From assembly GCA_040757335.1 (NCBI GenBank), contig JBFLXB010000002.1, forward strand, positions 36,381 through 100,380: DNA of 64,000 nt, read 5' to 3'. The translations under genes and the position numbers were made by a program. Of the stretch, positions 5,984-43,912 are shown piece after piece. This DNA is from Nitrospirota bacterium. GTDB lineage: Bacteria; Nitrospirota; Nitrospiria; 2-01-FULL-66-17. The stretch's first letter is position 1, and each line of letters begins with the position of its first letter. A model generated the notes under the pieces. That model searched no databases. It was not told where the DNA came from and was given only the letters and a program-made list of their open reading frames with translations.

Positions 5984-5991
5984 CGTGTGAC

Positions 5992-13904: not shown

Positions 13905-13914
13905 CCATTTACTG

Positions 13915-14439: not shown

Positions 14440-15036
14440 GTGAAGCGTCGGTTCCTCTGGGCCAACTGTGTGGTCGCGCTCTGGCTGGGTGCCTGCGCGT
14501 CCAGTCCTGCGCCGGCGCCCGCGCCGAAGGAATCGCGGGTACCGCTTCCGAGCTCGGAGTATCGGATCGGTCCGGAGGACGTGCTGGAAATCGTGGTGTG
14601 GAAGAACGCTGATTTGTCCAAGACCGTGTCGGTGCGCCCCGACGGGATGATCACGCTTCCGTTGATCGGGGAGCTGCGCGCGGGGGGCCTGACCGCGGAT
14701 GAGGTGCGGACCGAGATCAAGAGCCGCCTGGAACGGTACAAAGAGACCCCAGAGGTATCCGTGACCGTCGCGGATATCCGAAGCTACAACCTGTTCATTC
14801 TTGGCGAGGTCCGGACCCCGGGCCGTTATCAAGTCAAGACCTCCACCACCCTGCTACAAGCGCTGGCATTAGCCGGCGGGTTTACGGAGTTCGCCGATAC
14901 CGACGGCATCGTGGTCGTGCGGCGGGATACACGGGAAGCGGTCTCGAAAGAGCAGCGGATCAGGGTCCGATATCGGGATTTGGTCCAGCGGGGGGACGTG
15001 GCGTTGTCTCCCGGCGATACCGTCATCGTTCCGTAG
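14440..15036 (+). CDS. Polysaccharide export outer-membrane lipoprotein, short Wza/EpsA-like (SLBB domain)
   Basis: GTG start preceded by GGGGAAGG. Lipobox WLGAC. YRIGPEDVLEIVVW..ITLPLIGEL..GLT..E typical of Poly_export/SLBB proteins. About 198 aa, like EpsA of PEP-CTERM loci. Confidence 0.8.
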   Translation: MKRRFLWANCVVALWLGACASSPAPAPAPKESRVPLPSSEYRIGPEDVLEIVVWKNADLSKTVSVRPDGMITLPLIGELRAGGLTADEVRTEIKSRLERYKETPEVSVTVADIRSYNLFILGEVRTPGRYQVKTSTTLLQALALAGGFTEFADTDGIVVVRRDTREAVSKEQRIRVRYRDLVQRGDVALSPGDTVIVP

Positions 15037-15045
15037 CAGGGCGAT

Positions 15046-16602
15046 ATGGCACAATCCAGCACACGCGACGGAGTCGATCACTACCTGGAGGTTTTCAGCC
15101 GGAGACGCTGGTGGGTCATCATTCCGGCGATCGTCATCGCGACGCTCACGGTCCCCATCGTGATGTGGCTGCCGGCCACCTACCGATCCACCACGCTGAT
15201 CACGGTCGAAGCGCAAAAAGTGCCGGAAGAGTTTGTGCGTTCGACCGTCACGATCCCGATCGAAGAGCGCCTCCAAGCCATCAGCCAACAGATTCTCAGC
15301 CGAACTCGCCTCGAACGGGTCATCGAGAAATACGGCTTGTACCGAGAGGACAGACAACGCGGGTGGGGATGGCTCACCACGTGGTTCGGACGAAGCGAAG
15401 ATCGAGAACAAGCGGCCCGTCCGGGCAGTCCCCAGATGCTCGACCTTGTGGTGCTCATGAAGAGCAACATTGAAATTGAGGTTCCACGGGCGCGTGATCG
15501 CGGTAACACGATTTCGATCTCGTTCAGCGGCGAATCGCCCCAGACCGTCCAGGCCGTGACGAACGAACTCGCATCGCTGTTTATTGAAGAGAACCTGAAG
15601 GCCCGTGAGGCCCAGGCGGAAGGCACCACCGAATTCCTCGAAACCGAGCTTCAGCAGACGAAGGTGCAGCTGGAGACCCACGAGCAGCACTTGCGCGCGT
15701 TCAAAGAGCGCTCGATGGGCGAGTTGCCGGATCAGCTGGACGCCAACCTGCGGACCCTCGACCGACTCCAGTTGGAACGACAGGTCCTGCAGCAAAGCTT
15801 GAAGAGCGCGGAGGACCGCTACGCGGATCTAAGCCGGCAGGTTCTTGCGGCATCGTCAGCCTCAGAGGAGGCTACGCCGTCCGATCTGGCGCGACGGCTT
15901 CAGACGTTACGCACTCGTCTTGCGGACCTGCGGACCGAATACCGGGACGAGTATCCGGACATCATTCTGCTCAAGAAGGAAATTGCCTCGGTGGAAACCG
16001 AACTCGCCTCGCAGGGGTCACGGGAGGCACAAGAAGTGACTTCGGCTTCGGCTGCCGGTCAACTTCCGGCCGGGAATCCGCTCGCGATGCAGCTGGCCGA
16101 CCAGCAGCGGGAAATCAACGCACTCAGACTTCGTCAGCAGACGGTCTTGGAACAGATCCGCGAGTATGAGCGGCGGGTCGAGAATACCCCGGTCCGCGAA
16201 CAACAGTTGGCCGCGATCCTCCGCGACTACGAGAACGTTCAGCGCAGCTACCAGAGTCTGCTCGCGAAACGTCAGGATGCCAAGATCTCCGAGAGTCTGG
16301 AGCGAAGGCAAAAGGCCGAATTTTTCCGCATCCTCGACCCGGCGAATCTGCCGTCTCGCCCCGATAAACCCAACCGTCCGCTCTTGATGCTGTTGGGGAT
16401 TTTCGGGGGACTTGCGGCCGGCTTGGGTCTCGCCTATTTCCGCGAGCAGCTTGATCCCTCGATTCAAAGCGAGGAGGACCTGGTCGCGGCGACCACCGGT
16501 CTTCCGCTCCTCGCGGTCATTCCGGTCATCCCCGCTTCGGTCAAGAAGAAATCGCGCTCTGAATCGTCGCCGACGGTCCACGTGGGCTCCGGGAAACCAT
16601 GA
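15046..16602 (+). CDS. Polysaccharide chain-length determinant protein (Wzz/GumC family; PEP-CTERM-locus EpsF-like)
   Basis: N-terminal TM (WWVIIPAIVIATLTV), long periplasmic coiled-coil region, second TM near the C-terminus (LLMLLGIFGGLAAGLGLAYF). Classic PCP-2a N-terminal architecture without the kinase. Confidence 0.8.
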   Translation: MAQSSTRDGVDHYLEVFSRRRWWVIIPAIVIATLTVPIVMWLPATYRSTTLITVEAQKVPEEFVRSTVTIPIEERLQAISQQILSRTRLERVIEKYGLYREDRQRGWGWLTTWFGRSEDREQAARPGSPQMLDLVVLMKSNIEIEVPRARDRGNTISISFSGESPQTVQAVTNELASLFIEENLKAREAQAEGTTEFLETELQQTKVQLETHEQHLRAFKERSMGELPDQLDANLRTLDRLQLERQVLQQSLKSAEDRYADLSRQVLAASSASEEATPSDLARRLQTLRTRLADLRTEYRDEYPDIILLKKEIASVETELASQGSREAQEVTSASAAGQLPAGNPLAMQLADQQREINALRLRQQTVLEQIREYERRVENTPVREQQLAAILRDYENVQRSYQSLLAKRQDAKISESLERRQKAEFFRILDPANLPSRPDKPNRPLLMLLGIFGGLAAGLGLAYFREQLDPSIQSEEDLVAATTGLPLLAVIPVIPASVKKKSRSESSPTVHVGSGKP

Positions 16603-17408
16603 GCGACTCGCGATCTCCCGAACCGTACGCCTCGTGGTTATCAAGGATCCGGCAACGCGTGGAGTCTCCAAGCGGGGTCAGCAACGCTCAGACCAACGAC
16701 GATCTGTCAGCGTCGTCAACCGGTCAGCGACCCGCAAGGGGAGACAAGGTTCAGCTCCCGTTTATCGCAGCGATCGATGAGCCAGACTCGGTGGTCGCCG
16801 AGCAGTACCGGCTGTTCGCTGCCAGACTGGAGGGGTTGTGGAAACAGCCCGGCTTCAAGATGGTGGGCATCACGAGCACACTGCCTAGCGAGGGTAAGAG
16901 CTTGACCAGCATCAACGTGGCCTGCGTGTTGGCCAAGGACTTCGGACGCCGCGTGCTGGTAATCGATGGCGATTTTCGCAAGCCCAGCCTTTGGCAGTAC
17001 GTTGGCAACAAACCGTCAAAGGGGCTATCGGACGCAATTGCCAACCGGCGGGACGCGGATTCGATGGTTCGACGGCTCCGATACGAGCACCTCGCGGTTC
17101 TCCAAACCGGTCAGGTGCCGATCAACTCCACGCGATTGTGGAAGTCTGACGCGATCAAGCACTTGCTGGCGCATTTCGGTGGACAATATGACTATGTGAT
17201 CGTCGATACGCCTCCGGTCTTGACGGTCGTCGATACGACCTTGATCGCGGATCTAATGGATGGGGTGGTGGTGGTGGTGCGGTCCGGCGTGACGCCGACG
17301 GCCATGCTGCAGAAGGCCCTGGCGTCGCTGCCTCGGGCCAAGTTGGTTGGGACGGTGTTGAACGCGGCGAAGGGGTATTCGCCCTCATACTACTATCACG
17401 TGCGATGA
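16599..17408 (+). CDS. BY-kinase-type ATPase (CpsD/CapB-like; PEP-CTERM-locus EpsG-like) with C-terminal tyrosine cluster
   Basis: ATGA overlap with the upstream gene. Walker A TSTLPSEGKS, Walker A' VIDGDFRKP, Walker B YVIVDTPP. C-terminal Y-cluster YSPSYYYHVR. Confidence 0.75.
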   Translation: MSDSRSPEPYASWLSRIRQRVESPSGVSNAQTNDDLSASSTGQRPARGDKVQLPFIAAIDEPDSVVAEQYRLFAARLEGLWKQPGFKMVGITSTLPSEGKSLTSINVACVLAKDFGRRVLVIDGDFRKPSLWQYVGNKPSKGLSDAIANRRDADSMVRRLRYEHLAVLQTGQVPINSTRLWKSDAIKHLLAHFGGQYDYVIVDTPPVLTVVDTTLIADLMDGVVVVVRSGVTPTAMLQKALASLPRAKLVGTVLNAAKGYSPSYYYHVR

Positions 17409-18646
17409 GAACCGAAGACTCGGCGGGTGTAACTGGTTTGGCATCAACAGGGATGGCGAAAATGATTCCACCAAAGAAGAAGCTGAAACGCGGACGTGGA
17501 CCGGCGGGTCCACACGATCCGGTGTCGTTTCTCGTTGACCCGGAATTCGACATTTATATCGAAGACTACTTCATCGAAAGGCTGTGTTCCGAGCGGCAAA
17601 GGACGGCGCGGTCCCAAAAGCCGCTGTTGATGATGCTGTTGGACATCGAGCGGCTGCCCGAGCGCGAGCGGAGGGACACGATCAAGAAAGTCGTGACGGT
17701 CTTATCCGCAACGGTGAGAGAGACCGATCTCAAGGGTTGGTATAAGAACGACTCCGTGATCGGGGTGCTCTTTACCGAGGTCGCCGACGTGGATAGGGAG
17801 TCTTTGCGGCAAAAGATTTACGCGAAGCTTTGTGACAAACTGAAATCGGCTCAGGCCAGTCGAATCGACATCTCCTTTCATGCGTTCCCCGAGGACCCAC
17901 CGGAGGGCTCCAATGATCGAGAACAAGGTCCTCACAAACAGACCACTTCGGATGATCCCGTGTTCTATCCGGATCTCACCAGGCCGAAATTGTCCAAGAG
18001 CGTCTATCTCGGGAGCAAACGGGCCATCGACGTGCTGGGAAGTCTCGTCTGTCTGACCGTTTTTTCCGCGGTCTTTTTGGCGATTGCGATCGCCATCAAA
18101 GCGTCCTCCCGCGGTCCAATCATCTTCAGGCAGGAGAGGATCGGGTTGTACGGACGAAAGTTCGTTTTCTTGAAGTTCCGATCGATGTACATGAACAATG
18201 ATCCCGCCATCCACAAGGAGTATGTGCACAACCTGATCCTTGGGCAGAAGACCAACGGCAATGGAGGAAACGGATCGAACGGGAACGGCGTCTACAAGAT
18301 TACGAACGATCATCGGGTCACTCCGCTTGGCCGGTTCCTCAGGAAAACGAGTCTGGATGAGCTTCCTCAGTTCTTTAACGTTCTGATGGGACATATGTCA
18401 CTGGTCGGGCCACGGCCCCCAATTCCCTACGAGCTGGAGAAATACGAAGTGTGGCATCGGAGGCGTGTGCTGGAGGTCAAGCCGGGGATATCTGGCCTCT
18501 GGCAGGTGAGGGGCAGGAGCAGAACCACCTTCGACGAGATGGTGAGGATGGACATCAAGTATCTCAGGGAGCAATCGCTCTGGTTGGATCTGAAGATCCT
18601 CCTGCAGACTCCCTGGGCGATGTTCACGGCAAGGGGCGCGTACTAG
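17405..18646 (+). CDS. Priming sugar transferase (bacterial sugar transferase / PglC-WbaP C-terminal domain) with N-terminal degenerate GGDEF-like domain
   Basis: ATGA overlap with the BY-kinase gene. The C-terminal catalytic domain has hallmark motifs (RFLRKTSLDELPQFFNVLMGHMSLVGPRP, KPGISGLWQV). A single TM precedes it (VLGSLVCLTVFSAVFLAIAIAI). The N-terminal ~190 aa aligns to the GGDEF core (PLLMMLLDIERL.., VRETDLKGWYKNDSVIGVLF), with GG(D/E)EF replaced by KNDSV and an RxxD (RETD) at the inhibitory-site position. Confidence 0.8.
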   Translation: MRTEDSAGVTGLASTGMAKMIPPKKKLKRGRGPAGPHDPVSFLVDPEFDIYIEDYFIERLCSERQRTARSQKPLLMMLLDIERLPERERRDTIKKVVTVLSATVRETDLKGWYKNDSVIGVLFTEVADVDRESLRQKIYAKLCDKLKSAQASRIDISFHAFPEDPPEGSNDREQGPHKQTTSDDPVFYPDLTRPKLSKSVYLGSKRAIDVLGSLVCLTVFSAVFLAIAIAIKASSRGPIIFRQERIGLYGRKFVFLKFRSMYMNNDPAIHKEYVHNLILGQKTNGNGGNGSNGNGVYKITNDHRVTPLGRFLRKTSLDELPQFFNVLMGHMSLVGPRPPIPYELEKYEVWHRRRVLEVKPGISGLWQVRGRSRTTFDEMVRMDIKYLREQSLWLDLKILLQTPWAMFTARGAY

Positions 18647-18686
18647 CCCGGGACTATTCACTGAACGTTCGTAGAGGTAAACGGAA

Positions 18687-19691
18687 ATGATTGGCGTTGG
18701 CGTCGTCGGATACGGGTACTGGGGCCCGAACCTGGTACGGAACTTTCACGCGCTTGAGAACGCGAAGGTGGTCAAAGTTTGCGACCGGAACCCGGCGGCC
18801 TTGAAGCGTCTCGCCAAGACCTATCCGGGTATTGAAGGTGTGACGAGTGCCGATGAGATCATGAAGTCGACGGAGATCGATGCGGTGGTAATCGCTACGC
18901 CGGTCTCCGCGCATTTCGAGTTAGCGAAAGAGGCGCTCCAACACGGCAAGCACATCTTTGTGGAGAAGCCCTTCACGGTAACCTCGGCGCAGTCCGAGAG
19001 GCTCATCGAATTGGCGGAGAAAAAGAACCTCAAGATCATGGTCGACCACACCTTCCTGTTTACCGGCTCGGTCAGGAAGATGAAACAGCTGATCGATGAC
19101 GGCGTGCTGGGTCAGCTCTACTATTACGACTCCACCAGAGTGAACCTCGGCTTGTTTCAGCACGACGTGAACGTCATCTGGGATTTGGCGCCGCACGACC
19201 TGTCGATCATGGATTTTCTCCTCAAGGACAAACCAGTGGCGGTGACGGCCAACGGGAGAGCCCATTTCGGAAACGGATTGCAGGATATCGCGTATATCAC
19301 GGTGTACTTCGCGAACGATATGCTGGCCCACTTCAACGTCAACTGGCTCTCGCCGGTGAAGGTGAGAACGACGCTGATCGGCGGCGAGAAGAAGATGCTT
19401 GCCTGGAACGACTTGGAGGCTGATGAGAAGATTCGAATCTATGACAAGGGGATTGAGGTCAAGAGCGGGGAGGGGATCTACAATCTGTTGGTGAGTTATC
19501 GCTCGGGGGACATGTGGGTCCCGAGGCTTGAACAGACCGAGGCACTGAAGACCGAGACCGAGTATTTTGTGCACTGTGTGTCGAACAACGAGACCCCGTT
19601 CAATGACGGGCGTGCCGGGCTCAGGGTGGTGAGAATGCTCGAGGCGTGTACGGAGTCGCTGGCAAAGGACGGCGGGATGGTTACGCTATGA
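18687..19691 (+). CDS. Gfo/Idh/MocA-family NAD-dependent sugar dehydrogenase (WbpB/WlbA-like UDP-GlcNAcA 3-dehydrogenase)
   Basis: N-terminal Rossmann VGVVGYGYWGPN, EKP motif (HIFVEKPF), about 334 aa. Followed directly by the acetyltransferase and aminotransferase partners. Confidence 0.8.
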   Translation: MIGVGVVGYGYWGPNLVRNFHALENAKVVKVCDRNPAALKRLAKTYPGIEGVTSADEIMKSTEIDAVVIATPVSAHFELAKEALQHGKHIFVEKPFTVTSAQSERLIELAEKKNLKIMVDHTFLFTGSVRKMKQLIDDGVLGQLYYYDSTRVNLGLFQHDVNVIWDLAPHDLSIMDFLLKDKPVAVTANGRAHFGNGLQDIAYITVYFANDMLAHFNVNWLSPVKVRTTLIGGEKKMLAWNDLEADEKIRIYDKGIEVKSGEGIYNLLVSYRSGDMWVPRLEQTEALKTETEYFVHCVSNNETPFNDGRAGLRVVRMLEACTESLAKDGGMVTL

Positions 19692-20173
19692 GCGAGGTGG
19701 CTGTCGCGCCGGATGTGCGCTTGGGCAAGGATGTTAAGCTGTCGAAGTTTATCAATCTCTATGGATGTGAGATCGGCGACTGCACGAAAATCGGACCGTT
19801 CGTTGAAGTGCAGAAGAACGCGACGATCGGGAAGAACTGCAAGATTTCCAGTCACACCTTCATTTGTGAAGGGGTGACGATCGAGGACAACGTGTTTGTG
19901 GGGCACAATGTGTCGTTCGTCAACGACACCTACCCACGAGCCACCACCGCGGACGGCACGTTGCAGACGGAAAAGGACTGGAAGGTGGAGAAAACGCTGG
20001 TCAAGAAGGGGGCGTCCATCGGGTCCGGGGCGACCATTCTTGCGAACGTCACCATCGGTGAAAACGCCATCGTGGGGGCCGGCAGCGTCGTGACCAAAGA
20101 CGTCCGCCCGAACTCCGTGGTTGCGGGCAATCCCGCAAAGTTTCTGAGGAACCTGACCAGTGACAATCGATAA
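19688..20173 (+). CDS. Hexapeptide-repeat (LbH) N-acetyltransferase (WbpD/WlbB-like)
   Basis: ATGA overlap with the upstream gene. Repeated [LIV]-G-x-x-x-x hexapeptides (IGKNCKI, IGSGATI, IGENAIV, VGAGSVV). About 161 aa. Confidence 0.8.
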   Translation: MSEVAVAPDVRLGKDVKLSKFINLYGCEIGDCTKIGPFVEVQKNATIGKNCKISSHTFICEGVTIEDNVFVGHNVSFVNDTYPRATTADGTLQTEKDWKVEKTLVKKGASIGSGATILANVTIGENAIVGAGSVVTKDVRPNSVVAGNPAKFLRNLTSDNR

Positions 20174-21350
20174 GACTCATGTACCGTTTGTCGACCTGAT
20201 CACGCCCCATGTGGAACTGGAGCGGGAGTTGACGGCGGTGTTTCAACAAGCTGTCAGGTCAGCTGGATTCATCGGCGGACCGATGGTCAGCGAGTTTGAA
20301 AAACGCTTCGCGGAATTCTCCGGGACGTCGCAGTGTGTCGGCGTGAGCAGCGGGACGGACGCCTTGCGATTCGCGTTGATGGCCGCGGGGGTCCAAAAAG
20401 GCGACCGGGTGATCACGGTCCCGAACACCTTCATCGCCACGACCGAGGCGATCACCCAAGCGGGCGCCGTACCGGACTTCGTTGATATCGATGAACGCAC
20501 CTACAACATGGATCCCGAAAAACTTCGCGAGTACATCGAGATCCGGTGCGCCGTCGACAAGAAAACCGGCAGGATCGTCAACCGCGCCACGGGACAGCCG
20601 GTATCGGCCGTCGTCCCCGTGCACCTCTACGGCCAGCCGGCCGACATGGACCCCATTTTGGAACTGGCCGAACGGTATGGATTGATCGTGGTTGAAGACG
20701 CGTGCCAGGCGCACGGGGCCGAGTACTTGTCCAAGGCGGCTGGAGGGTGGAGGAAGGCCGGCTCGATCGGAAAAGCCGCGGCCTTCAGCTTCTATCCGGG
20801 GAAGAATCTGGGGGCGTGCGGAGAAGCGGGGGCGGTGACGACGAACGATGAGGGGATCGCGAGTAAGATTCGGATGCTCCGGGACCACGGACAGGTCAAG
20901 AAATACGTCCACGACGTGGAAGGATACAACGGACGGCTCGACGCCATACAGGCGGGTATCCTATCAGTGAAACTCAAACGCTTGCCTGAATGGAATGAAG
21001 AGCGCCGCCGCCTGGCGGCTCGTTACAACGAGCTGCTTGGAGACGTTGATGATCTGGTGAGGCCGGTTGAACCAGAATGGGCCAAGTCAGTCTATCACCT
21101 TTATGTGGTGCGCGTCCCGGATCGAGATGACGTGCAGAAACACCTCTCGGAGAACGACATCGCCACGGGTTTACATTACCCCGTACCCCTCCATCTTCAG
21201 AAGGCCTATGCCGACCTTGGGTACAAGAACGGCGACTTTCCGGTGACTGAGAAGGTCTCCAAGGAGATTCTGTCACTTCCCATGTACCCGGGGTTGGCGG
21301 AAAGTCAGCAGCAGCGTGTGGCCGAATGTCTCCAAAAACAGAGATCATAA
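20160..21350 (+). CDS. DegT/DnrJ/EryC1/StrS-family PLP aminotransferase (WbpE/WlbC-like)
   Basis: GTG start overlapping the upstream stop. Motifs SSGTDAL, FSFYPGKNLGACGEAGAV (PLP lysine region), VPLHLQ. Confidence 0.85.
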   Translation: MTIDKTHVPFVDLITPHVELERELTAVFQQAVRSAGFIGGPMVSEFEKRFAEFSGTSQCVGVSSGTDALRFALMAAGVQKGDRVITVPNTFIATTEAITQAGAVPDFVDIDERTYNMDPEKLREYIEIRCAVDKKTGRIVNRATGQPVSAVVPVHLYGQPADMDPILELAERYGLIVVEDACQAHGAEYLSKAAGGWRKAGSIGKAAAFSFYPGKNLGACGEAGAVTTNDEGIASKIRMLRDHGQVKKYVHDVEGYNGRLDAIQAGILSVKLKRLPEWNEERRRLAARYNELLGDVDDLVRPVEPEWAKSVYHLYVVRVPDRDDVQKHLSENDIATGLHYPVPLHLQKAYADLGYKNGDFPVTEKVSKEILSLPMYPGLAESQQQRVAECLQKQRS

Positions 21351-22372: not shown

Positions 22373-22384
22373 TGGTAACCGGCG

Positions 22385-24556: not shown

Positions 24557-24558
24557 CC

Positions 24559-25458: not shown

Positions 25459-25507
25459 GTGCGGCGGAGCTTCACTTGAACCGGTTTGACTCCTTGAAGA
25501 GCGGCCA

Positions 25508-26368: not shown

Positions 26369-26370
26369 GC

Positions 26371-27324: not shown

Positions 27325-27371
27325 CCTGACAGGGCGGGGACCAGTTGTGAAATGAGTGGAATACCATCGTA

Positions 27372-30931: not shown

Positions 30932-30964
30932 TCGTTTGCGTAAGATAATAAAGGGGTCGAATAG

Positions 30965-34598: not shown

Positions 34599-34622
34599 GG
34601 TGATTCGAGGCGATCGCGGGGT

Positions 34623-35255
34623 GTGTTGGCCGTGTTCGGGATTCTTTTCTGGCTTCCAAACGTCTTCATTGACCCGAGCACAACGTTCGTCTGGACTGTG
34701 GGCCTGACTTGGGACGCTGCTGGGCTCGGGGGCGTTTTTTGTGGCGGCGTATCACACGCATTCCGGAGATTGGGGGCGCCTCGCGCCCGTCGTATCACGC
34801 GCGGCATCACTGATAGGTTGATCGGCGTGTACTCGTACGGGATTTATCTCTGGCACGTAACCGCTATTGGAGTTTTGGAGCGAGAATTTGGTGGACGTTT
34901 AGTGGCGTTGGCCGGCGGCCCGAACCAGTTTGTGTGGCTGGTAAGCGTGCTTGTGGTTGGCAGCGGGGCAATCGTGGCGGGAGCTATGGCGAGCAGACTG
35001 GTTGAGTGGCCCGTGTTGCGTCTACGAGATCGGATTGTGCCATCGCGTACAGGATCACTCCAGCCGGCTACAACGAGAGTGCACGCGGATACGGGATCGT
35101 TCCCCGTGTCCCGGCCTGAAGAGCCGGTGCGCACGGTCGGCAGACGCAGAGCGGGATTCTGCGACTGTCTGGTGAGGAACAGACGGAATGGCACGTGGTT
35201 CGAGTTAGAGCCGGGCGTGCGTAGGAAGGATGCTCTTGGCGGCGATTGGCGATAA
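34623..35255 (+). pseudogene. Probable remnant: C-terminal fragment of an acyltransferase-3 (OafA-like O-acyltransferase) family gene
   Basis: Only the conserved C-terminal block of acyltransferase_3 is present (IGVYSYGIYLWHVTAIGVL...LVEWPVLRLRDRI). The N-terminal ~200 aa with its TM helices is missing. The gene sits immediately after a GT2 gene with no room for the missing part. Confidence 0.4.
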
Positions 35256-35274
35256 AGAGGTGACAGAAGCTCCG

Positions 35275-36849: not shown

Positions 36850-36917
36850 CCTTGGAGCGGTATGGCAGCGACAGAAAGCGAATGTGGGCGGTTCATGGTG
36901 AGTGGTAGACAAGGAGA

Positions 36918-37775
36918 TTGATGACCACTATGCGGACGATGCTTGGAAAGCTCAAGAGGCGTGGTGCTTCCGCTCTAGAGGGTCTCATCGTTGGGACGCC
37001 GATGCCTCTGGCGGTTCAAACGTGGGCGATCAAGTGGTTGTTGCCGATGGACCCTTGGCCGAAATCGCTAGCCTATCAGCAGTGCCTTGCGGATCGCGTC
37101 ATGAGGAACTACGGCGCCATCACCCAGAGCGGTCCGTTTAAGGGTATGGTCTGTATCCGAGACGCGAAAGAAGGATGTCTGGTTCCGAAGCTGCTCGGGT
37201 GTTACGAAGAAGAACTCGCGTCGACGATTGAGGCCTTCCTCCAAAGGGGATTTGACCGCATTATTGATGTAGGTTGTGCGTCGGGTTATTGGCTAACTGG
37301 GTTGGCCCTTCGAATGCCGAAAGCCAAGGCGTTTGGCTTCGATGGCGACAAGGAGGCGCTGGCGCGCTGCTCAACGCTGGCGGCGTTAAACAACGTTCAG
37401 TCTAGGATCACGTTGCTTGGCCTCTGTACTCCAGCGGAACTTGAGAGGCTCATAACAGATCGGACTTTCGTGTTCATGGATTGTGACGGACCGGAATACG
37501 AATTGCTGGATCCTGGCGCGGCACCGTCTCTTCGCAAGGCCGATATCATCGTCGAGTGCCATGATTATCTCAACCCGAAGATTTCATCCACCATCCAAGA
37601 GAGGTTCAGGGCGTCCCACTTGATTGACAGGATAGAGAGCCGAACTAGGGAGCCGAGTGTCGAGCGGTATCCCGGGCTTAAGGTCCTTCCACGCCAACAC
37701 TGGGCAGGCGCGCTCGACGAACGGCGGCCAGCTGTTCAGGAATGGCTGATAATGCGCTCCAAACATCTGCCATAG
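36918..37775 (+). CDS. SAM-dependent methyltransferase (class I; FkbM-like)
   Basis: Motif I IIDVGCASGYWLTGLAL. Acidic post-I (FGFDGD). Confidence 0.6.
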   Translation: MMTTMRTMLGKLKRRGASALEGLIVGTPMPLAVQTWAIKWLLPMDPWPKSLAYQQCLADRVMRNYGAITQSGPFKGMVCIRDAKEGCLVPKLLGCYEEELASTIEAFLQRGFDRIIDVGCASGYWLTGLALRMPKAKAFGFDGDKEALARCSTLAALNNVQSRITLLGLCTPAELERLITDRTFVFMDCDGPEYELLDPGAAPSLRKADIIVECHDYLNPKISSTIQERFRASHLIDRIESRTREPSVERYPGLKVLPRQHWAGALDERRPAVQEWLIMRSKHLP

Positions 37776-37802
37776 GTGGTCGGGCGAAAGGGGCACTAAT
37801 AG

Positions 37803-38645
37803 ATGATCAGCGTCTGGCTTCGAGAGATCCTATACGAACGTTTCATTCGCGGAATACAGGGAGGATATGCGGACGAGGAGGGCAGTCTGTGTGGCAGTAG
37901 GTCGGCCATGGTCTTCTCGCCTCACTTCGACGACGAGACACTCGGGTGTGGCGGCACGATTATAAGGAAAACCCGTGTTGGGACGAGAGTTCAAATCGTT
38001 TTCATGACCGATGGGAGCACGTCGCATCGGAGTCTGGTGTCCGGGGAAACGCTGACGAAGATGCGCTCGGCTGAAGGCGTGAATGCGGCCATCAATCTCG
38101 GGTTAAAGCCTGACAATGTCACTTTACTAGGCTTCAAAGAAGGGGCCCTTGCGTCCGAGTCAGAGAGAGCAGCTAAAAGAGTCAGTGAATTGATCGAGGA
38201 AGAGAATCCCGATGAGATTTTTATTCCTCACCGTAGCGAGCCGTTGCTATGGTCTGCTGACCACCGCGAGACGACGCGGATCGTGAAGAAAGCGTTAGGG
38301 CTCTTGGGAAGGAATCCGATAGTCCTCGAGTACCCCGTATGGTACTGGTATCACTGGCCTTGGGTGGGGATAGATATACTGGAGCACAACTATAGAAAGG
38401 TGATCCTGAAGAACACTCTTTCTCAGTTGTTCGGGCTAAGAATCGGGAGGGATTTTAATTATGGCGTTCGGATAGGCGGTGTGTTGGCGCAAAAGGAAAA
38501 GGCCTTGGAGGAGCACAAGTCCCAAATGTCACGGATCATACCTGACAAAGAATGGATCACGCTCAGGGACATTTCTGGCGGCCAGTTTCTAGAGTGTTTC
38601 TTTAGGGAGTATGAGATATTCCTTCGATACAAATTTCAAGGATAA
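37803..38645 (+). CDS. PIG-L / LmbE-family N-acetylglucosaminyl deacetylase
   Basis: Signature FSPHFDDETLGCGGTI (HxDDE), downstream His/Asp ligands. Confidence 0.75.
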   Translation: MISVWLREILYERFIRGIQGGYADEEGSLCGSRSAMVFSPHFDDETLGCGGTIIRKTRVGTRVQIVFMTDGSTSHRSLVSGETLTKMRSAEGVNAAINLGLKPDNVTLLGFKEGALASESERAAKRVSELIEEENPDEIFIPHRSEPLLWSADHRETTRIVKKALGLLGRNPIVLEYPVWYWYHWPWVGIDILEHNYRKVILKNTLSQLFGLRIGRDFNYGVRIGGVLAQKEKALEEHKSQMSRIIPDKEWITLRDISGGQFLECFFREYEIFLRYKFQG

Positions 38646-38657
38646 GGGAGTCGACTA

Positions 38658-39635
38658 ATGAGAAATCTGATCACAGGCGGAGCTGGGTTTATCGGAAGTC
38701 ATCTCGCAGACTATTTGTTGAAGGAAGGGGAGGAAGTGGTTATCTTGGATGACCTTTCCACCGGAAGTTTCGACAATATCAAGCACCTGGTAGACAACAA
38801 GCGATTTAGGTACTACATAGGCAAGGTTGAAGACGGAAGGTTATTCGAGGGCATCGTAGACTCCGTTGATCGAATCTACCACCTAGCCGCTGCGGTAGGG
38901 GTTCAATTGATCGTGGAAGACCCGGTGCGGACCATCGAGAACAATATCAATTCAACCCAGGTGGTGTTGGAACATGCCGTAACCTACGGGAAGCCGGTCT
39001 TGGTTGCGTCCACATCGGAAGTGTACGGCCGGAGCGACAAGCTCCCCTTTTCGGAGGAGAGTGAAGTCGTATACGGGCCGACGAGCCGTTTCCGGTGGAG
39101 CTATGCCATATCAAAGGCTGTCGATGAATTTCTCTTTCTCGCGTACAACCGGCAGAAGGGACTCCCCGGCGTTATCGTGAGGCTGTTTAATACCGTAGGG
39201 CCGAGGCAAACCGGTCGCTACGGTATGGTGATTCCCCGATTTGTCAAACAGGCGCTGACTGGGGAACCGATCACCGTATACGGGTCGGGAGAGCAAACGC
39301 GATGTTTTACCCACGTTCTTGATGTTGTGCCGGCCCTACGGAATCTGATGAAGACGAAAAAGGCACAAGGACTCGTTGTGAATATCGGCAACGATGAGGA
39401 AATCACGATCAATGACCTTGCCGAGAAGATTCAAAAGAGAGTAAATCCAAAGGTAGAAATAGTCCGGCTCCCCTATGAAAAGGTCCTGGGGAAAAACTTC
39501 GAGGACATGGATGCTCGGAGGCCTGATCTCACCCGCATCCGCCAGCTCATTGGGTACCATGCCACCAAGACGTTGGACACGATTATCGAAGACGTCTACA
39601 ACTACTACCGGGAGGAGTGGAAGCCAGAGATATAG
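38658..39635 (+). CDS. NAD-dependent epimerase/dehydratase (short-chain dehydrogenase/reductase (SDR) family, UDP-glucuronate decarboxylase/ArnA-like)
   Basis: [11 protein letters not shown] Rossmann motif. STSEVYG and YxxxK (YAISK) catalytic motifs. Confidence 0.8.
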   Translation: MRNLITGGAGFIGSHLADYLLKEGEEVVILDDLSTGSFDNIKHLVDNKRFRYYIGKVEDGRLFEGIVDSVDRIYHLAAAVGVQLIVEDPVRTIENNINSTQVVLEHAVTYGKPVLVASTSEVYGRSDKLPFSEESEVVYGPTSRFRWSYAISKAVDEFLFLAYNRQKGLPGVIVRLFNTVGPRQTGRYGMVIPRFVKQALTGEPITVYGSGEQTRCFTHVLDVVPALRNLMKTKKAQGLVVNIGNDEEITINDLAEKIQKRVNPKVEIVRLPYEKVLGKNFEDMDARRPDLTRIRQLIGYHATKTLDTIIEDVYNYYREEWKPEI

Positions 39636-39682
39636 GCCTACACGCCAGGAAGGCAAAGCTCAGAGAACCTAAGGAAAGGAAA

Positions 39683-40981
39683 ATGAGGATCGCTTTTGTG
39701 TCTCAGGGGCTAGGTCGCATCGATCCGCCCAGAGCTTACGGTTCGATTTCGATCTGGACCTATGGCGTTCTTAAAGAGTTGGCAAAGAGCGAGCATATCA
39801 TTGCATACGAAATGGAGGGGGGGCTCCTTCGGAGCAGGACAAAATATGAGCGAGGGGTGACGTATATTTATGCCCCCACACTGTTGAATCGCCTCATCAA
39901 CCGATACCATCGGGCGTTGCATCGCGTAAAAAGCATGACGGGATATATCACTGGTTCAAGAGGCACCCCCATTTTTGCTTCGTCTATTCACAATGTGGGC
40001 TATGTTCTCTGGGTGGCGCTCAATCTGCGCAAGCAACAGTGCGATGTAATCCATATCCATCAGTTCTCTCAATATGTCCCTATTGTTCGATTCTTCAATC
40101 CCAAATCCAAAATCGTCCTCCACATGAATTGTGAATGGCTTTCGCAGCTTGATCCAGCTATGATCGCGGGACGACTTGAAGCCGTGGATGCGATTGTCGG
40201 ATGCAGCACTCACATTCTTCGCCGAATACTTGAGAAGTTCCCGCATCTTGATAAGAAGTGCAGTGTGGTCTTCAATGGCGCAGATGTCGGGCTCTTCGTC
40301 CCTTCCGTAGGCGCAGTCGCGATGAATTCTCCCGACACACTTCGGATACTCTTCGTTGGTCGCATTTCGCCGGAAAAGGGAGTGCACATCTTGGTTGAGG
40401 CGTTCAAGCTTGTAGCTGCCGAATACCCCACGGCACGTCTCGAACTGGTAGGCGGGACCGGCAGTATGCCTGAAGAATTCCTGGTGTCCTTAAGTGACGA
40501 TCCCGCGGTGAAGGGCCTGAAGAGATTTTACGGCAGAGATTACCTGGAGGACTTGAGGAATCGGATTCCCGAGGGGCTAGCCGATCGCGTCAGGTTCCAC
40601 GGAAGTGTGGCTCATGGAGAATTGGCAGGACATTATAGCCGGGCGACGGTCTTCGCTATCTCGTCGCTCTCAGATGCATTTCCGCTAACCGCTATTGAGG
40701 CCATGGCCGCCGGATTGCCAGTAGCAGGCAGCGCCGTCGGTGGCATCGCGGAGGCGGTGGTCGACGAAAGTACGGGGCTGTTGGTCGAGCCTGACAATCC
40801 CGAGGCGCTGGCTGCGGCATTATCCAGGCTTCTTGGGGACAGCAACCTACGCAGACGGATGGGCTCTGCAGGACGTGAGCGGGCGTTGAGGTTGTTTTCG
40901 TGGCGCGCCATCGCCGACCAGGTTTCGCGTGTGTATGACACGGTAGTGGAGACCGAGTCCACGCATAAAGGCGTGTGTTGA
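39683..40981 (+). CDS. Glycosyltransferase family 4
   Basis: Start at MRIAFVSQG, preceded by AGGAAAGGA. C-terminal GT4 region ISSLSDAFPLTAIEAMAAGLPVAGSAVGGIAE (EX7E). Confidence 0.8.
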   Translation: MRIAFVSQGLGRIDPPRAYGSISIWTYGVLKELAKSEHIIAYEMEGGLLRSRTKYERGVTYIYAPTLLNRLINRYHRALHRVKSMTGYITGSRGTPIFASSIHNVGYVLWVALNLRKQQCDVIHIHQFSQYVPIVRFFNPKSKIVLHMNCEWLSQLDPAMIAGRLEAVDAIVGCSTHILRRILEKFPHLDKKCSVVFNGADVGLFVPSVGAVAMNSPDTLRILFVGRISPEKGVHILVEAFKLVAAEYPTARLELVGGTGSMPEEFLVSLSDDPAVKGLKRFYGRDYLEDLRNRIPEGLADRVRFHGSVAHGELAGHYSRATVFAISSLSDAFPLTAIEAMAAGLPVAGSAVGGIAEAVVDESTGLLVEPDNPEALAAALSRLLGDSNLRRRMGSAGRERALRLFSWRAIADQVSRVYDTVVETESTHKGVC

Positions 40982-40994
40982 TCCGGGGCCCCGA

Positions 40995-43109
40995 ATGGAC
41001 AGCAGCACAAGCCCAGAAGGTGTAGAACGTGAGCAAACTGATTCGATGATTGATCGATTCCTTGACGAGCGGCCACCGGGTGGTGTGATCGGGACGGAAG
41101 TGAAGGCGCGGGTTGCGCGTAAGGGTGTAGACGAGGAGCGGGTGATCAGCATAGACAATGGAGCCCTCCGGATCCAGCCCTTGATTCGACCAGGGTGGGG
41201 GCGCTCTGGAATCGCCTACGGGCCATACGCGAGAAGGAACGGGTTGGCCTTTGGCGCCTTTCTCACCAATGGTCATAACATATCTCAATCCGAGCCGCTT
41301 CCCGACGGATTCAGGGCCAGACTCGTGCGCTGGGTTCGAGGGAGTGAGACGGACAAGCCGCTCACACGAATTATACGATGGCTACGAGGCTCGCAGAAGA
41401 AGTTCACGTGGCGGCGATTGTCTCATTGGTTTAGACACGGATCACGATTTCTTAAGGTGGACCCTCTCCGTGAGAATCTTGCCGTAGGGTGGTTTCCTAG
41501 TGATAGACCCGGCGATCCCTTAAGCGAGGGCAATTCGCTTATCGTCCATGCTCTCACGTCTGAGGGCGGTGAGCTCTGGGCGCGATCGGGGTTAGGCGTC
41601 GTCCGGACAGTTCGCGGACTTCAGAATGTTCCAATGTACTACTTCGTCGTATTGCGCGAAAAAGGGGCCGCATACTATGGTGCTTCGGTTCCGGGTGTGC
41701 CAGGCCTTACGGCCTATCCGAGGATGCGATTGCTGGCGGTCGACGCGGTGCACGCCGACAAAGAGGTGTACGCAGGGGTCCACCAGAGTGTCCTCGGTGA
41801 GATCGGCTTCCGGGCTGACACGAGAGTCTATAGTACGCAAGTGGAAATGCTATCCGAGTTCGACAAATGGTACGGTTCAGCGCACGGCGCTGATTCGTTG
41901 ACCGGCGAGGGGAAGCTTCACCTGTCTAATGCTGAAATCGGAGGGAACTGGACGGTCTACGAGGGAGAGTTTGCTAGGACTAAGCGAGGGTTGATCGCAA
42001 CAGGTGCCACGAACGTGGCTATGCTGAAGTTGAACGCGCCTGTGGGGTTGGTTCATGTTGTGATCCACACATCCGATAAGGCTATGGGAGGAATGGCATT
42101 GATCTGGCGTGCCAAGGATGAGAAGAACTACTGGAGTTTCGAGGTGGGAAGCCGGCAGTGTAAGCTGTCCGTCAATGAAGACGGATCGTGGCACAGCTTT
42201 CCCGCCGCCAAGGGCCACTACCTTGCGCCCAATGCGGAGAATGTTGTGCAGGTCGCTGATGATGGCGAGAATATCCGATTGCACCTCAATGGAGACCTGG
42301 TATACGGGACGAGTTTATCGGACACTAGGTTGGGGGACGGAACTGGAGTCGGAGTTCGAGTCGCCGGTAGCACTGACAACGCCACGGTGCATTCGTTTGA
42401 GGCCCATCCACGTGATATGCCGATTCCTAAAGCGTTCGACCTTGGGAACGCATGGTTCGAACAAGGGAATCATGTCGTTGTGGAGTGCGCCTTCGAGGGT
42501 CCACCTGGTGACCTCGCTGGGCGTACTACAAAGGTGGGAGCCAGGATCTGGAAAAAGGATATTGGACGAGGCGTTATTCAGTCGATTGGTGGACGAGGTG
42601 CAAAGGTACTTGCCACCGTCGAGAAGCCGTGTCCTGATCGGACGGCGTACACAATCGAATGGCATAACCCCACGTTTGCTGACGTCGAGGTGAAGATCAC
42701 GCCCCCTGGGATGCGAAAAGGCATGAGGGAGAAAGGGCGAGGAGGCCTAATATTTTGGCAGGATGGATTAAATTACATCACTCTGAGTCTATTCCTGGGA
42801 GATTTTCCCGCCATGTCCATTGCGGCCTTCTTTTATAGGGACGGATACGAGGAGCTATATGATGCCGTATGGAGTAACATTGGCAACCGAGTCCACTGGG
42901 GAGTGCCTTATGACTTCAGAGTGGTATTCGACGGGAAGCGATTTCTGGCTTTTATAAATGGCGAGCCCGTACTCTACCGAGCGCTCTCCGACGTTTACGC
43001 GGACTGGAAGGAGCTTGTCATAAGCCGCGTTGGCATTGTCGCGAACTGGGAATGGGGAACCGACACGGGAAGTGTCTTCCACAACTTTGTCGTGAGAGAT
43101 CGAGCATGA
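40995..43109 (+). CDS. Hypothetical protein, 704 aa, no family recognised (cytoplasmic-looking), embedded in the glycan locus
   Basis: Uninterrupted ORF with balanced, protein-like composition. Its stop is coupled to the next gene start by an ATGA overlap. No TM, no signal peptide, no known catalytic motif seen. Confidence 0.5.
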   Translation: MDSSTSPEGVEREQTDSMIDRFLDERPPGGVIGTEVKARVARKGVDEERVISIDNGALRIQPLIRPGWGRSGIAYGPYARRNGLAFGAFLTNGHNISQSEPLPDGFRARLVRWVRGSETDKPLTRIIRWLRGSQKKFTWRRLSHWFRHGSRFLKVDPLRENLAVGWFPSDRPGDPLSEGNSLIVHALTSEGGELWARSGLGVVRTVRGLQNVPMYYFVVLREKGAAYYGASVPGVPGLTAYPRMRLLAVDAVHADKEVYAGVHQSVLGEIGFRADTRVYSTQVEMLSEFDKWYGSAHGADSLTGEGKLHLSNAEIGGNWTVYEGEFARTKRGLIATGATNVAMLKLNAPVGLVHVVIHTSDKAMGGMALIWRAKDEKNYWSFEVGSRQCKLSVNEDGSWHSFPAAKGHYLAPNAENVVQVADDGENIRLHLNGDLVYGTSLSDTRLGDGTGVGVRVAGSTDNATVHSFEAHPRDMPIPKAFDLGNAWFEQGNHVVVECAFEGPPGDLAGRTTKVGARIWKKDIGRGVIQSIGGRGAKVLATVEKPCPDRTAYTIEWHNPTFADVEVKITPPGMRKGMREKGRGGLIFWQDGLNYITLSLFLGDFPAMSIAAFFYRDGYEELYDAVWSNIGNRVHWGVPYDFRVVFDGKRFLAFINGEPVLYRALSDVYADWKELVISRVGIVANWEWGTDTGSVFHNFVVRDRA

Positions 43110-43912
43110 CATTTCAAGAAGGCCTTCTGAGGTTACTCTCCTTGAGGTTGCTTGGAGATGTCGGGCAGCGATTACTGCGCGGGCGACTCTGGACGATTGA
43201 GCGGGGGGAAGGGGCGGGTCTGAAGGTGGTCTATCCCCAAAACCATGACTACATTCTGGGGTCAAGCGAGCGCCCAGTTCAGAACGCCTTGGCGACGCAA
43301 CTCCATTCGGGCGATGTGTTCTATGATGTCGGTGCCAACGTGGGATTCTTCTCCATCGTTGCCGCGAGGCTGGTGGGATCAGAGGGGTACGTTTACTCGT
43401 TCGAGCCTGTGGAAGAGAACATTACATCCATCCGTGAGAACGCCAAAGTCAATAAGCTAGAAAATATGAAATCCTTTGAGGTGGCTGTGGGGCGAATGTC
43501 CGGAAACGAGGACCTGCTTTTGACGGAATGGAATGGTGGAGCCAGCCTCTCGACGTCGGTCGTCAAACCGGCTGTGCCGGCTTCCACAAGGAATGTGCGT
43601 GTTGTGGCGTTGGATGACTTCATACAGGCGCATAATTTGCGGGCTCCGACCCTGGTAAAGATCGACGTTGAAGGCTCTGAACTCGATGTGGTGCAAGGGA
43701 TGTCAAGAACGATTGCTACGTCAAGGCCGATCCTCTTGTACGAGATTGACGATGGAAACAAGAAAGCCTTCAGCAGCCGTTGGCAGGAACTTGATCAATT
43801 GGTCGCCGGATTCGGTTACCGGATCCTCCATCTCGAAGAGTCATATCCTACCCTCAAATGGAACGTCGGGCACTCCCTGGCGGTGCCGGTGGAGTCTCCG
43901 GATGCGGGCTGA
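43106..43912 (+). CDS. FkbM-family SAM-dependent methyltransferase
   Basis: FYDVGANVGFFSIVAA motif I typical of the FkbM family. ATGA overlap with the upstream gene. Confidence 0.7.
   Translation: MTFQEGLLRLLSLRLLGDVGQRLLRGRLWTIERGEGAGLKVVYPQNHDYILGSSERPVQNALATQLHSGDVFYDVGANVGFFSIVAARLVGSEGYVYSFEPVEENITSIRENAKVNKLENMKSFEVAVGRMSGNEDLLLTEWNGGASLSTSVVKPAVPASTRNVRVVALDDFIQAHNLRAPTLVKIDVEGSELDVVQGMSRTIATSRPILLYEIDDGNKKAFSSRWQELDQLVAGFGYRILHLEESYPTLKWNVGHSLAVPVESPDAG

Follow-up and report, generated by a model that had tools for sequence, protein, structure and literature searches.

The region described here lies in a 64-kb window of a metagenome-assembled genome (MAG) of a Nitrospirota bacterium, which is part of a contig of 173,097 bp, and the absences reported below hold for these 64 kb. 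It is composed of one very long Wzx/Wzy-dependent exopolysaccharide (EPS) operon (14440-59220) and an adjacent block of surface-protein genes (59318-63179). Protein families and synteny place the locus in the exosortase (PEP-CTERM) lineage, and it probably serves a surface system of this lineage as the arm that builds and exports the polysaccharide. Alone, this locus would be one more large environmental polysaccharide cluster, and its main value is as comparative evidence on the exosortase acceptor. The target to which exosortases attach their substrates has been an open question since 2006, and the only worked-out ligation that is comparable is that of PorU in the T9SS (type IX secretion system), which acts on a Wbp/Vim linking sugar. 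Most of 81 species-level genomes have a Wbp/Vim-like enzyme set as the conserved core of their exosortase-lineage EPS locus, and this adds a broad comparative base to the published speculation on the exosortase acceptor (PMC7468200). Moreover, relatives with and without an exosortase at a defined junction provide a testable acceptor candidate together with natural plus/minus comparators.

A previous sequence-only reading of this DNA had interpreted a series of its genes as the set that characteristically surrounds exosortases. All of the genes it listed were located by family models (Pfam and NCBIfam) on the plus strand, at or near the positions it proposed. Classification with hidden Markov models (HMMs) supports the interpretation in part. 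An XrtA/PEP-CTERM-associated model is the best NCBIfam match for five proteins, and synteny points in the same direction, but each of the five scores below the curated cut-off. These are the outer-membrane polysaccharide export (OPX) protein (TIGR03027, 139.5 versus 180), the polysaccharide co-polymerase (PCP) or chain-length determinant (TIGR03007, 275.4 versus 278.85, a shortfall of only 3.5 bits), the bacterial tyrosine kinase (BY-kinase; TIGR03018, 136.1 versus 230.65), the FemAB-family protein (TIGR03019, 142.6 versus 260.35) and the AsnB-like amidotransferase (TIGR03108, 568.7 versus 816.9).

Relatives were collected as 81 distinct GTDB loci (designated with L numbers below) retrieved with a FemAB profile, and they derive from Nitrospirota, Thermodesulfobacteriota, Ignavibacteria, Bacteroidota and Planctomycetota. 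The gene order that recurs among them is OPX, (barrel), PCP, (ATPase), BY-kinase, priming polyprenyl-phosphate sugar-phosphate transferase (PGT), WbpB, WbpD, WbpE, FemAB, a protein resembling carbohydrate esterase family 4 (CE4), a family 4 glycosyltransferase (GT4), a canonical polysaccharide deacetylase, two family 2 glycosyltransferases (GT2) and AsnB/Wzy. The closest genome, GCA_049325295.1, carries on contig 44 a locus (L001/L004) that is syntenic from a TIGR04442-family gene through FemAB at 69-89 % identity and then diverges. As a control, locus L005 from Nitrospirae JdFR-86 passes TIGR03007 (493.7), TIGR03018 (267.1), TIGR03015 (409, cut-off 324.5) and TIGR03016 (187.7, cut-off 90.85). 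Its FemAB and AsnB proteins nevertheless score 142.0 and 568.3, which are the scores of the window proteins, and FemAB proteins located beside real exosortases score 129.6 (L046) and 126.8 (L060). Because the same low scores occur in true XrtA-type loci, the TIGR03019 and TIGR03108 cut-offs are not discriminating for this subfamily. By these scores, the FemAB and AsnB proteins are a sister subfamily outside the coverage of the older models, and the export genes of the window are best described as diverged members of the XrtA-associated clade.

The window is syntenic with loci that satisfy the XrtA/PEP-CTERM definitions. Among the relatives, an exosortase is present in L046, L077 and L060, and a PEP-CTERM protein in L017, L026 and L060. 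In a neighbour-joining tree of the FemAB-like proteins, exosortase-linked and unlinked members are intermixed. No exosortase lies within 10 kb in 78 of the 81 loci, and only one of the 36 loci with both flanks has an exosortase 10 kb or less from FemAB. We rejected the count of three in 81 as a measure of linkage, since it is an underestimate: the 10-kb flank stops short of the end of the operon. The apparent rule that exosortases are not found near FemAB arises in part because contigs of the sister clade place the exosortase at the far end of the operon.

Most of the relatives share a sugar module. In the window, it includes a nucleotide-sugar 3-dehydrogenase of the Gfo/Idh/MocA family that is WbpB/GnnA-like (18687-19691, plus strand, as are the genes that follow; NF040723, 178.5 bits, below cut-off). 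The best NCBIfam match for this protein is the archaeal UDP-GlcNAc 3-dehydrogenase model, and the Protein Data Bank (PDB) matches include 7bvj (1.9e-18, full length) and WlbA 3q2k (2.7e-13). We take 7bvj to be the UDP-GlcNAc 3-dehydrogenase GnnA. Next are a WbpD/WlbB-like N-acetyltransferase for 3-amino sugars with a left-handed beta-helix fold (19688-20173; PDB 7s43, 4e-28; 4mzu, 2e-26; WlbB 3mqg, 2e-18; and QdtC) and a pyridoxal phosphate-dependent sugar 3-aminotransferase of the DegT family that is WbpE/QdtB-like (20160-21350; PDB 7b0d, 1e-110; QdtB, 7e-98; WbpE, 2e-70). The activities expected of WbpB, WbpE and WbpD (3-oxidation, 3-transamination and 3-N-acetylation) fit these families and their nearest solved relatives, with UDP-GlcNAc or UDP-GlcNAcA as the likely substrate. 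The sequence-only reading had assigned to the trio the making of UDP-2,3-diacetamido-2,3-dideoxy-uronic acid precursors, but the sequence gives no evidence of the uronic part. No match of the UDPG_MGDP_dh type for WbpA (UDP-GlcNAc 6-dehydrogenase) was found among the called genes and a motif scan of the window was empty; because of this lack of WbpA, a uronic acid product is unproven and a carboxylate substrate for the AsnB-like enzyme is presumed. WbpA-type open reading frames (ORFs) occur in only seven of the related loci.

Immediately downstream is the FemAB-family gene (21326-22372), which encodes a VimA-like and probable aminoacyl-tRNA-dependent aminoacyl transferase. TIGR03019 is its best and nearly sole NCBIfam match, Pfam assigns Acetyltransf_6 and FemAB, and a profile search of the PDB yields FemX (2e-12). 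Its AlphaFold2 (AF2) model has a pLDDT of 89, and the top Foldseek matches are FemX, FemA and Sbb17/Sba18, the acceptor of which is an amino sugar (E ~1e-15). The protein is 100 % identical to MEW6681744.1 (Nitrospirota bacterium). The following gene (22385-24556) encodes a fusion of a CE4-like domain with a GT4. The N-terminal portion of ~325 aa is CE4/NodB-like (VimE-like) and retains invariant Asp72, His125 and His129, whereas the C-terminal portion is VimF-like, with GT4 domains at residues 349-695. An AF2 model of the N-terminal domain (pLDDT 74) gave 34 Foldseek matches at E<=1e-3, all of the polysaccharide-deacetylase/NodB fold, with 3rxz as the best (2.9e-8). As judged by family, fold and gene order, counterparts of VimA (FemAB/TIGR03019-like), VimE (CE4) and VimF (GT4) are therefore consecutive in the window. 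The CE4-like domain family (22385-23374, ~310 aa) has at least 7998 homologues at 56-82 % identity, which are mostly stand-alone proteins, and is covered by no Pfam or NCBIfam model, which looks like a gap in the family databases.

The module continues with a second, canonical CE4 polysaccharide deacetylase (24559-25458; Polysacc_deac_1, 83.2; PgaB N-domain, 79.8) and two GT2 genes (25508-26368 and 26371-27324) that have orthologues in L005 (62 % and 54 %, respectively) and in other loci. The AsnB-like glutamine amidotransferase (27372-29279), which is WbpS-like, passes the generic TIGR01536 model (508.5, cut-off 267) and presumably amidates a sugar carboxylate.

The sequence-only reading had regarded the Wbp trio as a separate module that was interleaved with the exosortase-type gene set. 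Neighbourhood counts contradict this view. Among the 67 loci with sufficient flank, 45 have all three Wbp genes in the 4.5 kb upstream of FemAB and 57 have at least one there, so the trio is the habitual partner of the FemAB gene rather than an interleaved extra. Of 68 loci with sufficient flank, 54 carry a CE4-like gene on the FemAB strand (with its start less than 400 nt from the FemAB end in 31), and in 18 loci the next gene after the CE4-like one is a homologous GT4. A module of PGT, WbpB/D/E, FemAB-like, CE4-like and GT4 proteins, with AsnB further downstream, is common to most of the 81 related loci.

Upstream of this module are the genes for export, chain-length control and priming. The OPX gene (14440-15036) encodes a lipoprotein of 198 aa with an N-terminus of ...LWLGAC and no outer-membrane-spanning helix; the model for EpsY scores 119. 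Because it contains only Poly_export (91.6) and one SLBB domain (51.7) according to Pfam, it is assigned to the short D1D2 or class-3 type. The PCP (15046-16602) has two predicted terminal transmembrane helices and, in the periplasm, a long coiled-coil part, and is 69 % identical in sister locus L004. A separate BY-kinase (16599-17408; TIGR01007, 131.6, cut-off 108) begins within an ATGA overlap with the PCP stop codon and ends in a tyrosine cluster (...GYSPSYYYHVR). The PGT (17405-18646) matches Bac_transf (217.6), TIGR03025 (280.8, cut-off 295.55) and TIGR03013 (145). It also carries an N-terminal extension of ~200 aa with no family match, a single predicted transmembrane helix and a low-complexity NGNGGNGSNGNG insertion within the Bac_transf domain. 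The remaining components for a Wzx/Wzy-dependent pathway are encoded further downstream, and include a Wzx flippase (35230-36849; Polysacc_synt, 51.9, cut-off 28.2) and a polymerase resembling Wzy_C and O-antigen ligases (30965-32218). With PGT, Wzx, Wzy, PCP, BY-kinase and OPX all represented, the weak point is Wzy, which scores 26.9 for Wzy_C and is thus under the Pfam threshold of 31.7. This protein is polytopic with at least six transmembrane helices, and has a 60 % identical orthologue in L088.

Short OPX proteins of the class-3 or D1D2 type need a partner beta-barrel (PMC9601211, PMC9603273). An outer-membrane beta-barrel protein that is distantly TIGR03016-like is encoded at 61713-63179 on the plus strand (TIGR03016, 29-30 bits, cut-off 90.85; Pfam OMP_b-brl, 24.9) and matches a profile built from relatives with an E value of 1.9e-4. 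It is annotated by NCBI as AB1451_02490, called there as 375 aa, and only 12 homologues were found. TIGR03016-type barrel genes are located beside OPX or PCP genes in L048, L021 and L005, which makes the window barrel a candidate partner pore for the short OPX.

This barrel also marks the position where the window departs from its sister genomes. Downstream of the operon, the surface block carries genes for a secreted beta-helix protein (59318-60820, minus strand; 26 % identical to its L090 orthologue, E 4e-16), a lipoprotein with fibronectin type III (fn3) domains (60817-61374, minus strand; 57 % identical to its L084 orthologue) and the barrel. It is followed by the 5′ part of a gene for an rfbB-like dTDP-glucose 4,6-dehydratase (63318-64000, plus strand; TIGR01181, 321 bits on 227 aa), a member of the short-chain dehydrogenase/reductase (SDR) family that is cut by the window end. 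The beta-helix/fn3 block is also found in L084, L087 and L090. Barrel neighbours in L084, L085, L086, L087 and L090 are fn3/beta-helix genes, response regulator and histidine kinase (RR/HK) genes with or without PrsT, or both. On contig 42 of the sister MAG GCA_049325295.1 (L084), the order is rfbB-like gene, exosortase (298 aa), beta-helix (minus strand), fn3 (minus strand), barrel, and then a sigma-54 response regulator, a histidine kinase and PrsT (all minus strand). The barrel of this contig is 61 % identical to that of the window, and positions 63318-63998 of the truncated rfbB-like gene are 89.9 % identical to L084 positions 173-1285. PrsT from L084 passes TIGR02917 (384.9, cut-off 312.2), whereas its response regulator (401.8, cut-off 502.6) and kinase (76.9, cut-off 300) fall below their respective models. 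A contig from JGI (L090) has the same gene order and an exosortase 73 % identical to that of the sister MAG.

A third contig, L089, connects this arrangement to the EPS operon, because it carries in succession the second GT2, a 548-aa protein (54 %), Wzy (60 %), GT2, Glyphos_transf, the rfbB-like gene and the start of an exosortase. On this gene order, the sister clade carries its exosortase at the very end of the same EPS operon. XrtC, XrtW and XrtA are the types closest to this exosortase, and the generic TIGR02602 model is the only one that it passes. A search for its relatives in JGI metagenomes returned one distant match (41 %), and the 90 % cluster of the sister exosortase has a single member.

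Two configurations can therefore be distinguished. In configuration A (L084, L090), the exosortase follows the rfbB-like gene. In configuration B (the window and L086), the operon end at 59220 is followed by a 97-nt gap, the beta-helix and fn3 genes, the barrel and the rfbB-like gene. The junction of the window that matches the exosortase site of the sister is this 97-nt gap, and it is empty. The exosortase is thus missing from the position it holds in the sister genomes. L086, whose barrel is 73 % identical, is the sole other contig with the window order, and its rfbB-like gene runs straight into RR and HK genes with no exosortase. The rfbB-like SDR gene precedes an exosortase in L084, L089 and L090, and precedes RR/HK genes in L086. 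Likewise, the barrel orthologues of L084 and L090 lie between the exosortase and the RR/HK/PrsT genes, whereas L085 and L086 have RR/HK genes and no exosortase. By analogy with L086, regulators of the RR/HK/PrsT type probably lie just past position 64000. An apparent second case of exosortase presence and absence at one fixed junction is seen among the GTDB loci, where L064 shares the order WbpE, WbpB, WbpD and FemAB with L046 and L077, but has 159 nt where those two carry an exosortase.

The sequence-only reading had also reported that the 64 kb lacks an exosortase, an EpsI-type AAA ATPase, a PrsK/PrsR regulator and any PEP-CTERM-tailed protein. The searches made here by HMM, phmmer, tblastn and six-frame tail scans bear these absences out, with the ATPase sought as the XrtA type. 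There is no NCBIfam or Pfam match to an exosortase, TIGR03015 or PrsK/R/T among the called genes of the window. HMMs built from three and four seeds, together with phmmer, recovered their positive controls and detected no exosortase at E<=10 when run on the six-frame translation; the seeds were verified exosortases of related loci (TIGR02602, 118.6 and 125.5, cut-off 105.55). A profile of six relatives of the XrtA-type ExeA-like ATPase found nothing in the six frames at E<=1e-3, and the same profile finds the ATPase in 30 related loci. The ATPase is also absent from sister locus L004, and in the window there is no room for it between PCP and BY-kinase because these genes overlap by 4 nt. Searches of the window with tblastn that used the exosortase, response regulator, kinase and PrsT of the sister MAG returned nothing. 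No six-frame ORF of at least 50 aa ends in the hydrophobic helix and basic tail of a PEP-CTERM-type protein, and the same scan recovers genuine PEP-CTERM proteins in L017, L026 and L060 (for example, L060_9235_9843, 27.9 versus 16 for TIGR02595).

Two candidates for the missing components were rejected. The sole match to a VPDG-type sorting-tag pattern is an ORF (62570-62830, minus strand) that lies antisense inside the barrel gene. An ATPase of the MinD/ParA type (4371-5408), which might have substituted for the XrtA ATPase or kinase, scores as MinD-like (81 bits) and is located among housekeeping genes.

From the gene content, family assignments, synteny and absences described above, we infer the following course of synthesis and export. 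The PGT would prime undecaprenyl phosphate. The 3-dehydrogenase, 3-aminotransferase and N-acetyltransferase would convert UDP-GlcNAc (or its uronic acid) to a 2,3-diacetamido-2,3-dideoxy sugar, from which the CE4-like domain of the fusion may strip one N-acetyl group. The FemAB/VimA-like enzyme could then transfer an amino acid from aminoacyl-tRNA to the freed amine, with the fused GT4 installing the aminoacylated sugar and the AsnB-like enzyme amidating a carboxylate. Genes of the low-GC variable region would add CDP-hexose-derived and C-methylated sugars as well as methyl and pyruvyl groups. Presumably, Wzx flips the repeat unit, which the Wzy-like protein polymerises under the control of PCP and BY-kinase, and the short periplasmic OPX passes the polymer to the barrel (61713-63179) for passage through the outer membrane. 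In the sister genomes, the aminoacyl amine might be the acceptor for protein ligation by the exosortase, much as the Wbp/Vim linking sugar is for PorU. The window locus itself would make and export a decorated polysaccharide, and protein ligation, if any, would depend on a gene outside the 64 kb.

Several observations weigh against this interpretation of the region as the polysaccharide arm of an exosortase-lineage system. The five best-matching XrtA-associated models all remain below their cut-offs, and the likeness of the barrel to TIGR03016 is weak (30 bits). The barrel is also ~47 kb from the OPX gene, and its pairing with OPX is drawn from relatives in which the genes are adjacent. The absence of WbpA from the window departs from the Wbp pathway. 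The Vim analogy is drawn from family, fold, gene order and the statements of the published account. Finally, no sorting-tagged substrate was seen even in the sister contigs that carry an exosortase.

Other explanations can be considered. The system might be complete, with an exosortase, PrsR/K/T-like regulators and tagged substrates located just past the 3′ end of the window or elsewhere and acting in trans, a possibility that we rate as substantial but slightly short of even. The near-identity of the truncated rfbB-like gene to that of L084 fits this idea, given that an exosortase directly follows this gene in L084, L089 and L090, as does the presence of an exosortase and PrsT in a sister MAG whose core is 69-89 % identical. 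Furthermore, only 64 kb of the 173-kb contig is visible, and most related loci have their exosortase either over 10 kb away from FemAB or not linked to it. However, L086, which has the order of the window, proceeds from the barrel through the rfbB-like gene to RR/HK without an exosortase. The 97-nt junction ahead of the beta-helix gene is empty as well, and the 64 kb holds no tagged protein.

These same features of configuration B, which lacks an exosortase at both junctions where configuration A has one, would be expected if the exosortase had been lost when a rearrangement brought the rfbB-like gene to its place behind the barrel. The locus would then make only a decorated exopolysaccharide or capsule, with the aminoacyl sugar as a structural or charge feature rather than an anchor. 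Clusters of vimA/vimE and wbp genes without exosortases are on record in Pseudomonas, Aeromonas and Vibrio (PMC7468200), and the window lacks an XrtA-type ATPase too. Nevertheless, we consider such a loss unlikely, if worth serious attention: absence from the window is not absence from the genome, and L086 keeps the barrel and RR/HK neighbourhood of the exosortase configuration, which suggests a system that is still regulated as a unit. It is more doubtful still that the locus is a natural exosortase-minus derivative that keeps the whole Wbp/Vim-like module, in which the aminoacylated diamino sugar, an exosortase acceptor in the sister genomes, has an independent role or is the substrate of an unrecognised ligase.

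Least probable by far is an ordinary Wzx/Wzy O-antigen or capsule locus that resembles exosortase loci only through generic OPX, PCP, BY-kinase, AsnB and N-acetyltransferase (GNAT) families. In favour of this reading are the subthreshold XrtA-specific scores, the passing generic models (TIGR01007, TIGR01536, Bac_transf and Polysacc_synt) and the 78 of 81 loci without a nearby exosortase. It is largely refuted by synteny, both with loci above the TIGR03007, TIGR03015, TIGR03016 and TIGR03018 cut-offs and with exosortase/PEP-CTERM loci. Also against it are the XrtA-associated top models for five proteins (with PCP so close to its cut-off) and the exosortase and PrsT beside the orthologous barrel of the sister MAG.

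The interpretation of the region as an exosortase-lineage polysaccharide arm can be compared with three known systems. The window shares with the XrtA/PEP-CTERM EPS loci (Haft et al. 2006, PMC1569441) both families and order, from OPX to the Wzy/ligase-like protein, plus an outer-membrane barrel. It differs in that its 64 kb is without an exosortase, TIGR03015 ATPase, PrsK/R/T or tagged protein, in the ~47 kb between barrel and OPX, and in the integrated Wbp-type trio, which is outside the classical TIGRFAM set.

In P. gingivalis as well as T. forsythia, the Wbp/Vim pathway makes a 2-N-seryl/glycyl-3-N-acetyl-glucuron(amide) linking sugar (Veith et al. 2020, PMC7468200), to which the cargo of the T9SS is ligated by the sortase-like PorU (PMC7468200). 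The same authors noted that VimA matches TIGR03019 and that the AsnB proteins of exosortase loci match WbpS/TIGR03108, and they speculated on an analogous exosortase acceptor (PMC7468200). The genes vimA, vimE and vimF are contiguous (PMC7468200, PMC8003790), and the enzyme families and this order correspond to FemAB followed by the CE4::GT4 fusion in the window. In contrast to the Wbp/Vim pathway, the window lacks WbpA, its VimE-like and VimF-like parts are fused, and the genes are in one operon with OPX, PCP and BY-kinase rather than scattered in a lipopolysaccharide context. The partner transpeptidase would be an exosortase rather than PorU.

The third comparison is with translocons that combine a short OPX with a beta-barrel, such as EpsY/EpsX of M. 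xanthus and VpsN/VpsM of V. cholerae (PMC9601211, PMC9603273). Common elements are the 198-aa OPX, the coiled-coil PCP and a barrel in the same super-locus. The window barrel is however of the TIGR03016 type and has not been shown to be EpsX-like or AlgE-like, and the OPX gene is not adjacent to it, as it is in L048, L021 and L005.

The operon comprises 37 co-directional genes on the plus strand, of which 14 junctions abut or overlap, and the widest gap is 273 nt. Its GC content is 0.54-0.58, compared to 0.64 in the flanks. ATGA/GTGA overlaps between genes, as had been proposed, were confirmed at 16599, 17405, 19688, 32215 and 53537. The sequence-only reading had further described the genes from 14440 to 43912 as one long operon. 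The co-directional run agrees with this, but the end at 43912 is arbitrary and the operon continues to 59220.

Upstream of the operon, positions 1-13904 (GC 0.64) contain housekeeping genes for a class I FBP aldolase, alpha-glucan phosphorylase, the MinD-like ATPase, BioA, DegP, a TIGR04442-family protein and a Mn/Zn-type ABC transporter. The TIGR04442-family gene (9755-11593, minus strand, 584 bits) is directly 5′ of the ABC genes and EPS locus, a position that is kept in the sister MAG (L001). The ABC-3 metal permease (12738-13904) is fused to a C-terminal HMA/CopZ-like metal-binding domain, and this fusion is also present in L001. A terminator-like hairpin of the permease gene is located at 13913-13931, at the beginning of an untranslated leader of 535 nt (13905-14439, plus strand) 5′ of the first EPS gene. 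There are zero Rfam family matches in the window. A scan for sigma-70 promoters gave seven sites where 9.4 are expected, which is not above chance, and no promoter was identified for the leader. An UpxY/RfaH-type NusG-like antiterminator (128.7, cut-off 100) is encoded within or ahead of the operon in L005 (4116-4649) and L002 (330-821). The window has no such gene, and the leader (13905-14439) was not searched for an ops-like element.

Between the AsnB-like and Wzy-like genes is an ORF (29066-30931, plus strand) for a conserved protein with no assigned function, which is ~549 aa in length if it starts just after the AsnB stop codon. It has no Pfam, NCBIfam or PDB match. A 548-aa orthologue of its 29282-30931 portion, 54 % identical, lies between the second GT2 gene and Wzy in L088/L089, and the gene always adjoins the Wzy-like gene in the sister contigs, so this protein appears to be a conserved partner of the polymerase.

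The remainder of the operon is occupied by two variable blocks, all on the plus strand. The first (32215-43912; GC 0.54 versus 0.64 in the flanks) has nearly no orthologues among 83 related loci. It begins at 32215 with a methyltransferase-domain protein, followed by a GT2 (33645-34598) and an acyltransferase-3 fragment of 210 aa (34623-35255) that covers only the C-terminal third of Acyl_transf_3 (23.6 bits) and is probably a gene remnant. A weak FkbM-like methyltransferase is encoded between Wzx and a PIG-L family deacetylase (37803-38645), after which are an SDR (38658-39635), a GT4 (39617-40981), an orphan of 704 aa (40995-43109) and an FkbM methyltransferase (43052-43912). The orphan has no Pfam or NCBIfam match and no orthologue among the 83 related loci, and PDB sequence searches were empty for it as for the 549-aa ORF. 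The protein collection has no identical sequence, which leaves its start codon uncertain.

The second block (44186-59220) begins with a methyltransferase and an SDR epimerase (TviC/GalE-like). Amid its sugar-biosynthesis genes is one for an FG-GAP/VCBS-repeat protein of 755 aa with an N-terminal signal or anchor (46672-48939). A glucose-1-phosphate cytidylyltransferase (49114-49884; TIGR02623, 369.5, cut-off 300) with an SDR next to it precedes three tandem C-methyltransferase paralogues of the NDP-hexose type (51082-54817; Methyltransf_13/14). The proximity of these methyltransferases to an enzyme that forms CDP-glucose suggests the production of C-methylated, branched-chain deoxy sugars. As listed, an ORF with an Lcl_C domain (54634-55398) shares 184 nt with the methyltransferase gene before it, and its true start is probably further downstream. 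The block ends with a pyruvyl transferase (55386-56744), its usual partner, an FrhB-like Fe-S protein (56775-58028), and an L-2-hydroxyglutarate oxidase-like (LhgO-like) flavoprotein (58012-59220; NF008726, 329.9, cut-off 299). The pyruvyl transferase and FrhB pair is also found in L048.

The protein numbering of NCBI from FemAB to the barrel is one fewer than the ORF count used here. In the surface block, the only PDB match to the beta-helix protein was an uninformative local alignment of 63 residues to CFA/I fimbrial subunit B. Instead of the variable block of the window, the closest relatives have after their sugar genes a giant protein of ~2,200-2,300 aa (L001 16955-20942; L002 12283-15933). 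In L002 it contains Big_2, DUF4082 and He_PIG repeats, and in L001 it is without a Pfam match.

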